Source: a virus | Taxonomy: Duplodnaviria; Heunggongvirae; Uroviricota; Caudoviricetes | Reading direction: 5' to 3' (one strand) | Virus record (IMG/VR): IMGVR_UViG_2531839527_000011 | DNA: 19,093 bases | Part shown: positions 7,676 through 8,746 of the stretch, piece after piece | Numbering within the stretch: position 1 is the stretch's first letter | How the letters are laid out: the number at the start of each line of letters is the position of its first letter | The notes under the pieces: model-generated | What the model was told of the DNA's origin: nothing | Database searches by the model: none | Seen by the model: the letters and a program-made list of their open reading frames with translations, nothing else | Program-made: the position numbers and the translations under genes

Positions 7676-8746
7676 ATGGCTAACGCCTGGCTCAGATTAT
7701 GGCATGACATGCCAAATGACCCTAAGTGGCGAACAATTGCCAGGGTGTCAGGGCAGTCAATTGCAACAGTGATGGCAGTGTATATCCACCTCCTGGTGAG
7801 CGCGTCACGAAATGTCACGCGAGGTCACATTGATGTCACGACAGAAGATTTGGCAAGTGCGCTCGACGTGACAGAAGAGGTAATTGATTCAATTTTGCAG
7901 ACGATGCAGGGGCGGGTACTTGATGGTGATTTAATCACTGGATGGGAAAAACGCCAGGTGCTTAAAGAGGACAACGGCAATATTTCGCAAACCGCAAAAT
8001 CTCCTGCAGAGCGCAAGAGGGCGCAGCGAGAGAGGGAAAGAAAGCGGGAACAAAATGGCGATTGTCACGGCGCGTCACGAAATGTCACGCACATGTCACG
8101 ACGAGTCACGACAGATAAAGATACAGATAAAGATACAGATCAAGAAGATCAAAACACTATGGTCCATGGCGTAAAAAACGCCACGAACCAGGCAGGGGAT
8201 GTTCAGACCGTCAATCTTGGTCAGCCAGCAGGCACGACACCGGAAGCCGATTCAGCGTATGCGCTGAAAGCCGATTCGGGCGCTGTGCAGCAGGTGATGA
8301 CCGCAAGGCCGGAGCAATCACACCAACTGCAGCAGCCTGAAGCCGATTCCGCCATTCAGCGGGAAGCCGATCGGGTAGTCACGGAAAACACCGGGCAGCC
8401 TGTGAGACGAGTGGATTATCCGGATGTGTTCGAACAGGTCTGGCGGGAATACCCGTTGCGTGCTGGGGCAAACCCGAAGAAATCCGCTTTCAGTGCCTGG
8501 AAGGCCAGATTACGCGAGGGGGTGTCACCAGAGGCCATGCTGGATGGCGTGAGGCGTTACGCAAGATACCTTGCGGCTACCGGGAAAACGGGAACGGAAT
8601 TTGTTCAGCGAGCGACGACGTTTTTTGGACCGGACCGGAATTTTGAAAACCCCTGGCTGCTCCCGGTAAGCGGCACGAACAACCAGCGTTGTGTGAATCA
8701 TATTTCTGAACCGGATACCGAAATTCCACCGGGCTTCAGGGGGTAA
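7676..8746 (+). CDS. Phage replication initiation / replisome organiser protein (O-like), with origin iterons inside the gene
   Basis: Sits in the O position. Contains two clusters of GTCACG iterons with roughly 10-bp periodicity. GAGGTG RBS before the ATG at 7676. N-terminus WLRLWHDMPNDPKWRTIA resembles replisome-organiser N-domains. Confidence 0.7.
   Translation: MANAWLRLWHDMPNDPKWRTIARVSGQSIATVMAVYIHLLVSASRNVTRGHIDVTTEDLASALDVTEEVIDSILQTMQGRVLDGDLITGWEKRQVLKEDNGNISQTAKSPAERKRAQRERERKREQNGDCHGASRNVTHMSRRVTTDKDTDKDTDQEDQNTMVHGVKNATNQAGDVQTVNLGQPAGTTPEADSAYALKADSGAVQQVMTARPEQSHQLQQPEADSAIQREADRVVTENTGQPVRRVDYPDVFEQVWREYPLRAGANPKKSAFSAWKARLREGVSPEAMLDGVRRYARYLAATGKTGTEFVQRATTFFGPDRNFENPWLLPVSGTNNQRCVNHISEPDTEIPPGFRG
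7800..7841. repeat. Iteron cluster 1 (putative ori repeats)
   Basis: GCGCGTCACGAAATGTCACGC followed by GAGGTCACATTGATGTCACG; four GTCAC(G/A) copies at about 10-11 bp spacing. Confidence 0.5.
8063..8135. repeat. Iteron cluster 2 plus adjacent AGATAAAGATAC tandem repeat (putative ori core)
   Basis: GTCACG at 8063, 8073, 8083, 8093 and 8104 (10-11 bp period), including a second exact copy of GCGCGTCACGAAATGTCACGC (8070-8090). Followed by a direct 12-bp tandem repeat at 8112-8135 that encodes DKDTDKDTD. Confidence 0.55.

Follow-up and report, generated by a model that had tools for sequence, protein, structure and literature searches.

Where does a prophage begin its replication, and how does it obtain a replicative helicase when it carries no recognizable gene for a helicase loader? 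Both questions are raised by a 19,093-bp stretch of DNA (IMG/VR virus record IMGVR_UViG_2531839527_000011; hereafter the window), which is a lambdoid, Rac-like Escherichia coli prophage. Its replication initiator gene holds two arrays of GTCACG repeats, or iterons, and the encoded protein ends in a tail that resembles the C-terminus of the host protein DnaT. We propose that positions 7800-8190 are the vegetative replication origin, lying within the gene of its own initiator, and that the helicase would be acquired through the DnaT-like tail. Taken as a whole, this is the best explanation that we can offer for the locus, and on balance we regard it as probable. The elements of the proposal are:

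7676-8746, + strand: replication initiator gene, 356 amino acids (aa), ATG start; an open reading frame (ORF) matching phrog_3729
7676-7951, + strand: predicted N-terminal winged-helix domain, aa 1-92, presumed origin-binding (AlphaFold2 model)
7804-7840, + strand: iteron cluster 1, GTCACG at 7804, 7814 and 7835, GTCACA variant at 7824, spacing 10/10/11 bp
7867-7872, - strand: one inverted copy of the iteron, 32 bp downstream from cluster 1
8064-8110, + strand: iteron cluster 2, GTCACG at 8064, 8074, 8084, 8095 and 8105, spacing 10/10/11/10 bp
8111-8159, + strand: AT-rich, A-strand-biased stretch, candidate DNA-unwinding element; includes the period-12 repeat at 8111-8145
8160-8190, no strand: imperfect palindrome TGGTCCATGGCGTAAAAAACGCCACGAACCA from the terminator scan; 13-position stem with 11 Watson-Crick pairs as DNA, 5-nt loop
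8408-8671, + strand: predicted helical C-terminal domain, aa 245-332, presumed partner-interaction (AlphaFold2 model)
8693-8743, + strand: C-terminal tail VNHISEPDTEIPPGFRG, the last 17 residues, matching the extreme C-terminus of host DnaT
8787-9209, + strand: DUF977/'LygF'/Ren-like gene, 140 aa, GTG start (PF06163)

Iteron arrays within the initiator gene

That the gene at 7676-8746 encodes a replication initiator was first suggested by a sequence-only reading of the locus and is borne out by its match to phrog_3729 ('replication initiation protein', E=1.5e-255). The same reading had described two GTCACG clusters of roughly 10-bp periodicity inside the coding sequence, a 21-bp exact duplicate and, beside the second cluster, a 12-bp tandem repeat encoding DKDTDKDTD. 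All of these are found where they were placed: the duplicate GCGCGTCACGAAATGTCACGC occurs at 7800-7820 and 8070-8090, and Tandem Repeats Finder places an array of period 10 at 8063-8113 and one of period 12, ACAGATAAAGAT x2.9, at 8111-8145. GTCACG occurs 15 times in the window, against an expectation of 6.5 +/- 2.4, and none of 200 shuffles reached 15. Ten of the 15 copies (one inverted copy included) fall in two stretches, 7804-7872 and 8064-8110, and a Poisson estimate for finding such clusters anywhere in the window gives about 5e-7 and 4e-9. Neither the window nor the 46-kb genome of the relative Tritos contains a third iteron cluster.

The arrays are maintained well beyond this prophage, with both clusters holding their positions in the gene in about 35 homologues. 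Among homologues gathered from metagenomes plus one genome per species, about 35 proteins have in common the N-terminal motif WLRLWHDMPNDPKWRTIAR; their hosts are Gamma- and Betaproteobacteria (Enterobacterales, Pseudomonas, Bordetella, Acidovorax, Chromobacterium, Castellaniella, Gilvimarinus and others). About 24 of the ~35 carry GTCACG at gene nt 129, 139, 149 and 160, often with an inverted copy at nt 192, and these same homologues carry cluster 2 at gene nt ~387-430 in three to five copies, the spacing always being 10/10/11 bp. When 20 GTCACG homologues with a mean nucleotide identity of 71% are compared, third-codon positions are 95% conserved in the iteron cores versus 56% elsewhere in the same 215 nt. 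Other lineages have GTAACG(C) or CGAACG iterons, and each genome's variant is present in both of its clusters. No other DNA feature of the family is as well conserved as the iterons, which persist down to ~47% protein identity and in two proteobacterial classes. Absence or degeneration of the repeats in related replicons, which the sequence-only reading had named as grounds for giving up the idea of an origin, is not what we find.

What is conserved here is a property of the DNA and not of the protein, because the copies are read in different frames (2, 0, 1 and 0 in cluster 1; 1, 2, 0, 2 and 0 in cluster 2) and encode different peptides. Across a wide protein family, selection on the DNA prevails over codon choice in the two arrays and in the AT-rich stretch and palindrome that come after cluster 2. 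No residues that track with the GTCACG, GTAACG or CGAACG type are evident by eye in the alignment of the N-domain. Five loci (L113, L116, L121, L122 and L128) have the conserved N-terminal motif, yet contain none of the three iteron types; one of them, L122, carries about ten AGATAA hexamers at gene nt 375-417.

In the AlphaFold2 model of the initiator, a confident N-domain (aa 1-92) is followed by a basic helix (110-126), a disordered linker (128-244), a confident C-domain (245-332) and a flexible tail. The linker holds both cluster 2 (aa 130-145) and the DKDT repeat, and cluster 1 encodes a low-confidence loop of the N-domain (aa 43-55) whose length varies in the alignment of relatives. The modeled N-domain falls within the DnaD-N-terminal-like winged-helix fold. 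No Pfam family matches the initiator at E<=0.01, and a Foldseek search with the full-length model returned nothing informative. Its homologues (n=1506, with 5786 members in the closest 90% cluster) carry the NCBI name 'phage replisome organizer', and both replication-initiation and replisome-organizer families of PHROG match it. The NCBI name is based on weak similarity: TIGR01714 gives a weak full-length match (E=0.009, 16.2 bits, cutoff 49.8). The family is a mosaic one: at least three C-terminal arrangements occur with the N-domain and its iterons, and the C-domain of this initiator is joined to another N-domain in other coliphages.

The disordered linker contains a further set of repeats, RAAGCCGATY 9-10-mers at 8244-8253, 8268-8277, 8340-8349 and 8364-8373, which form two pairs, each spaced exactly 24 bp, and encode [EK]AD. 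One pair is also found, with the same codons, in two homologues of 47-53% protein identity (L004 and L001), and deletions between the copies explain the 324-, 330- and 344-aa length variants of close relatives. They may represent either a third DNA element or a short motif of the peptide.

Layout of the probable origin and its precedents

Directly right of cluster 2 the GC content reaches the lowest value of the initiator gene (8120-8159; GC 0.30, AT skew 0.57), and two GATC sites (8137 and 8147) lie inside the AT-rich stretch. In most homologues a 40-bp window of 57-85% A+T starts no more than ~16 nt after the last cluster-2 iteron; A+T is at least 62% in all but two of these windows, GC-rich hosts included. 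About a dozen homologues also have a short GC-rich palindrome, scored without a shuffle control, that starts ~53-68 nt after the last iteron. DnaA boxes are absent from the origin region. Based on the conservation and arrangement of these sequence elements, we consider it very probable that the iterons belong to the origin of the phage.

We propose that the N-terminal DnaD-like winged-helix domain would bind the iterons along a single face of the helix. With both arrays occupied, ~260 bp apart, the DNA is expected to bend or loop, and melting would occur in the AT-rich stretch at 8111-8159, aided, as it is in lambda, by transcription running rightward from the cro/cII operon.

The sequence-only reading likened this region to lambda ori, and in layout the likeness holds. 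Lambda ori also lies inside the initiator gene, its iterons (nt 349-433 of O) occupying a relative position equal to that of cluster 2 here (nt 389-435); the order of iterons, AT-rich stretch and palindrome is the same; and in both cases the module is downstream of cro and cII in a rightward operon, with a Ren-related gene after the replication genes. The likeness does not extend to the initiator. Homology to lambda O was rejected, as there is no PF04492 match and BLASTP gives only a match in the low-complexity linker (E=0.074). The iterons differ as well, being 18-19-bp inverted repeats in lambda and 6-bp cores at 10-11-bp spacing here, where in addition a second array occupies the region coding for the DNA-binding domain and there is no P gene. 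Judged by its sequence, the initiator belongs to an uncatalogued family that differs from lambda O and bears an extra iteron array.

Lambda, P22 and SPP1 are all precedents for an origin inside an initiator gene, and in SPP1 the origin oriL lies within the initiator gene 38. The product of that gene, G38P, resembles the present initiator in the shared 'phage replisome organizer' name, in the weak TIGR01714 match and in the replisome-organizer families of PHROG. Homology to G38P was nevertheless rejected: hhalign of the family against G38P gives a probability of 0.2%, and the TIGR01714 match is below its cutoff. SPP1 also differs in encoding its own loader, G39P, and helicase, G40P. A resemblance of the C-domain to Phg_2220_C, a domain of G38P, was noted by eye but has no support in Pfam even at E<=10. 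We found nothing in the literature on a mapped origin or an 'initiator-solo' description of this initiator family; Weigel and Seitz are reported to have described such modules in 2006.

It is also conceivable that the arrays bind the initiator for autoregulation, copy control or incompatibility, acting as a roadblock or through handcuffing, and that the true origin is elsewhere. Plasmid iterons serve control as well as initiation, and cluster 1, early in the gene and with no AT-rich flank, would suit such a role. We regard this as improbable, however, given that cluster 2 combines iterons with an AT-rich stretch and a palindrome, a combination kept even in GC-rich hosts, that the Tritos genome contains no other iteron cluster, and that lambda, P22 and SPP1 place their origins in the same way. 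A distant second origin comparable to SPP1 oriR was rejected on the same absence from Tritos. Scarcely credible is the view that repeated peptide motifs, or slippage of replication in the linker, gave rise to the repeats incidentally, with no function at the DNA level. Although cluster 2 and the DKDT repeat do sit in a predicted disordered and length-polymorphic region, the copies occupy three reading frames and encode different peptides, and the conservation of their synonymous positions is the 95% given above; moreover, cluster 1 is inside a folded domain, and position and phasing are kept across bacterial classes. An origin embedded in the initiator gene is the reading that we carry forward, and it is a familiar arrangement, each element of which has a precedent.

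Proposed helicase recruitment and the DnaT-like tail

The sequence-only reading found no recognizable helicase loader, and we find none either. The window ORFs include no DnaC-like, lambda-P-like, DnaB-like or primase-helicase gene, none of them has a Walker A motif (GxxGxGK[ST]), and no PF01695 (DnaC/IstB-type AAA+) gene lies directly downstream of the initiator. Nor is a loader encoded anywhere in the complete genome of Tritos, whose module is the same. An IMG/VR scan with the family alignment, which returned near-identical E. coli loci only and so informs gene-order counts and not diversity, gave 80 such loci: in 75 the initiator is followed by DUF977, and in the remaining five (initiators 98-99% identical) an IstB/DnaC-like AAA+ gene (PF01695) is directly downstream. 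The absence of a loader is not decay of this one copy, because 75 of the 80 loci and Tritos are alike in this respect. Nor is the module defective from loader loss, a possibility that we rejected since Tritos, with the same module, forms plaques on K-12; it was plaque-purified and propagated on MG1655 hsdR- (PMC9928086). Because loader-less Tritos propagates, while five near-identical loci keep a DnaC-like gene, we conclude that a phage-encoded loader is optional for this initiator in E. coli.

Two further features of the family went unremarked in the sequence-only reading. One is that relatives of the initiator do come with loaders or helicases: a DnaC-like gene is downstream in L001, L003, L004 and L037, and in more distant relatives the initiator is followed by a DnaC-like, lambda-P-like, DnaB-like helicase or primase-helicase gene. 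The other is the C-terminal tail. A phmmer search of the PDB matches the tail to E. coli DnaT, ...VNTVSEPDSQIPPGFRG (2ru8, 9zbt), and to 6aep, a second deposited 'Primosomal protein 1' chain with the same tail match (E=0.016-0.06), and the NF002770 DnaT profile is matched at positions 156-179 of 179 (E=0.0014). Tail and DnaT are identical at 12 of 17 residues, with 11 shared in the final 13 (SEPDxxIPPGFRG). The three-helix domain with which DnaT binds single-stranded DNA (ssDNA), PF17948, is not detected in the initiator.

This tail is not confined to one protein family. When IMG/VR was scanned for the pattern IPDGFRG with a stop codon after it, 47 loci were returned, and the tail also ends initiators unrelated to the present one. 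The motif [ST][EQ]P[DG]xxIP[PD]GFRG-COOH is thereby found in host DnaT and in phage initiators of at least four unrelated kinds, namely this family, the lambda-O type (PF04492), the DnaT-domain type (PF17948) and the Phg_2220_C type (PF09524). Among 51 initiator clusters made at 80% identity, those bearing the tail have a DnaC-like gene next in 11 cases and no recognizable loader in 11, and in no case a P-like gene or helicase; tail-less clusters are followed by a DnaC-like gene once and by a P-like gene or helicase seven times (Fisher p=1.6e-4), the clusters being phylogenetically non-independent and the reference set small. The 11 clusters that combine the tail with an adjacent DnaC-like gene span at least three architectures, and the stop and start of the two genes often overlap.

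One locus, L139 (IMGVR_UViG_3300048887_000222), encodes an unrelated-looking initiator with a true DnaT domain (PF17948) and the DnaT tail, its ORF ending at the pattern match (locus positions 1365-1388, minus strand), and has a DnaC-like gene directly downstream, a gene order that mirrors host dnaT-dnaC. The L139 initiator also contains the peptide repeats NVTRNVTRNVT and NVTRNVTNNVT at two places, which by their sequence probably reflect iteron arrays.

In the mechanism that we envisage, the C-terminal part of the initiator, ending in its copy of the host DnaT tail, would bring in host DnaB-DnaC, and relatives with a DnaC-like gene of their own would use the same tail for the phage loader. 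Host dnaT and dnaC form one operon and interact genetically (PMC13377028), and the mechanism by which DnaT recruits DnaB-DnaC has been stated to be unknown (PMC13377028, PMC4132743). From the tail match and the gene orders, we judge the chances to be about even that the loader-less module relies on host DnaB-DnaC through a DnaT-mimicking tail. A broader proposal, that the shared C-terminal motif is a portable peptide capturing DnaC-type loaders or the DnaB-DnaC complex, is a possibility that we put forward only tentatively.

Comparison with other initiator-loader modules places the tail in context. In relatives, a tail-bearing initiator followed by a DnaC-like gene mirrors the E. coli dnaT-dnaC operon. 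The initiator differs from DnaT in that it has neither the DnaT N-terminal domain nor a demonstrated acidic PriB-binding linker, in that no DnaT ssDNA-binding domain is detected, and in its proposed targeting, which would be by sequence-specific binding at the origin and not through PriA. The Rac prophage has a similar neighborhood, with RecE, DicF, cI/cro, a YdaT-like cII gene and the initiator, then DUF977/LygF. In Rac-SA53 (ydaU-ydaV-ydaW-lygF), as here, the initiator has a DnaT-related C-terminal element; YdaU, however, combines DUF1376 with a true DnaT domain (PF17948), and a P-like gene comes next, whereas the window initiator has neither domain and no loader. A further parallel is DopC/DopE, a domesticated lambda O/P-like pair (Brezellec et al. 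2017, PMC5509034), for which the joining of an O-like origin-binding N-domain to a DnaT C-terminal motif has been described. DopC differs in being chromosomal, domesticated and without iterons, as opposed to a phage initiator with iterons and a different N-domain.

Two other routes to a helicase have to be weighed. Given the origin, the DnaT-like tail could dock onto host PriA (or PriA-PriB), with loading of the helicase via the restart primosome. To dock on PriA, the DnaT C-terminal domain uses a conserved hydrophobic surface, the tail (IPPGF) is itself hydrophobic, and half of the tail-bearing clusters have no DnaC-like gene beside them. We think PriA docking unlikely all the same, since the DnaT model that contacts PriA was built from residues 84-153, which excludes the tail, and 11 tail-bearing clusters do have an adjacent DnaC-like gene; one of these, L119, is from Sphingomonas, which is not known to have PriB or DnaT. 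The other route, raised in the sequence-only reading as an alternative to direct recruitment, would make the 140-aa product of the next gene a novel adaptor free of ATPase motifs that replaces the loader. It does lack Walker A, as that reading had noted; it directly follows the initiator in 75 of the 80 close loci and is absent from the available flank of the five loci that keep DnaC-like plus YdaW-like genes; and its N-terminus is probably a winged helix, judging by the match to phrog_2391 ('DNA binding protein'). The protein is, however, a DUF977 member (PF06163, E=6e-32, 110.9 bits vs a cutoff of 22.1) that PHROGs groups with Ren (phrog_142, 'Ren-like exclusion protein', E=1e-48). Its C-terminal 20 aa are 55% identical to lambda Ren, and its gene occupies the position of lambda ren, after the replication genes. 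Moreover, DUF977 follows the P-like ydaV and ydaW in Rac-SA53 and a ydaW-like gene in the E. albertii locus L088, and in Rac-SA53 it coexists with a loader gene. Lambda Ren is dispensable for replication. On sequence and position, DUF977 is best viewed as the counterpart of lambda ren, outside the initiation machinery, and we consider its service as an adaptor very improbable.

Several points weigh against the proposal of an origin in the initiator gene that is served by a DnaT-like tail. For the origin, these are the uncontrolled scoring of the palindromes, the absence from the literature of any report that we could find of initiator-iteron binding or origin activity for a member of the family, and the presence of a cluster 1 at all, a single iteron cluster being enough in lambda; the origin of this particular prophage copy may, in addition, be out of use, given signs of decay (a split RecE and a truncated DUF4406). 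For the tail, the association with DnaC-like genes carries the non-independence and small reference set already described, half of the tail-bearing clusters lack such a gene, and the folded C-domain has no detectable likeness to DnaT. DnaT residues 154-179 are unmodelled in preprimosome structures, and their removal merely lowered the cooperativity of ssDNA binding; the authors of the 2026 study favor the DnaT N-terminal domain for DnaB-DnaC recruitment.

The source prophage and the wider family

The 2-kb region around the module is 95-98% identical to complete phage genomes that include Tritos, Evi and vB_EcoS-689R5. In the window, the left arm of the prophage carries integrase, excisionase, RecE/exonuclease VIII and DicF, and is followed by an immunity region:

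6222-6860, minus strand: cI-like repressor
6904-7182: P22-type Cro
7179-7604: YdaT/cII-like gene, upstream of the initiator gene

The replication region then runs from the initiator (7676-8746) through DUF977 (8787-9209) to a truncated DUF4406, and is succeeded on the right by DUF4752, a Q antiterminator, hok/sok, a Doc-like toxin, HNH, RusA, a second Q, a kinase and a methyltransferase.

RecE/exonuclease VIII is split into three minus-strand ORFs (3103-3885, 2892-3101 and 1547-2917), a sign that this prophage copy is decaying, and its coding region includes a 21-bp tandem repeat x4 (74% matches) at 2276-2359. The DUF4406 ORF (nucleoside 2-deoxyribosyltransferase-like; 9206-9379, + strand, 57 aa) covers only positions 2-53 of the 91 in the profile. 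An exact 16-bp repeat, GGTAATTTTCAGGAGG, at 8767-8782 and 9183-9198 occupies the ribosome-binding region of DUF977 and again that of the next gene, and may be a module-junction sequence for mosaic recombination. The two Q-type antiterminator genes (9876-10412 and 15132-15827, + strand) are different from one another, with hok/sok, the Doc-like toxin, HNH and RusA between them, and the presence of two Q genes in one prophage suggests a composite or tandem prophage remnant. Two RNAs pass Rfam gathering thresholds: the DicF small RNA (4529-4580, - strand, 66.9 bits) and the sok antitoxin RNA (12107-12281, + strand, 108.7 bits), the latter beside a hok/mok ORF at 12219-12431.

What is distinctive about this module is the missing helicase loader, for which a DnaT-derived tail would probably compensate. 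With its 5786 proteins in the closest 90% cluster and at least 583 IMG/VR contigs, the initiator ranks with the most common replication proteins of E. coli and Shigella prophages, and the comparative data yield for it an origin prediction (two iteron arrays, an unwinding element and a palindrome) that is directly clonable and testable. The GTCACG, GTAACG and CGAACG iteron groups should also be usable for typing prophage replicons and for predicting the incompatibility of co-resident prophages. With the DnaT-like tail comes a way to approach the recruitment of DnaB-DnaC, an unsolved step in replication restart, and the tail may also explain why phages of DnaC-bearing hosts manage without a loader gene. 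If the shared C-terminal motif is indeed a portable peptide, then loader-less phages of Enterobacterales would start replication by imitating DnaT at the origin, the question of how DnaT hands over DnaB-DnaC to the restart primosome would receive a simple and testable answer, and the dnaT-dnaC operon would itself resemble an initiator-loader pair domesticated from a phage.

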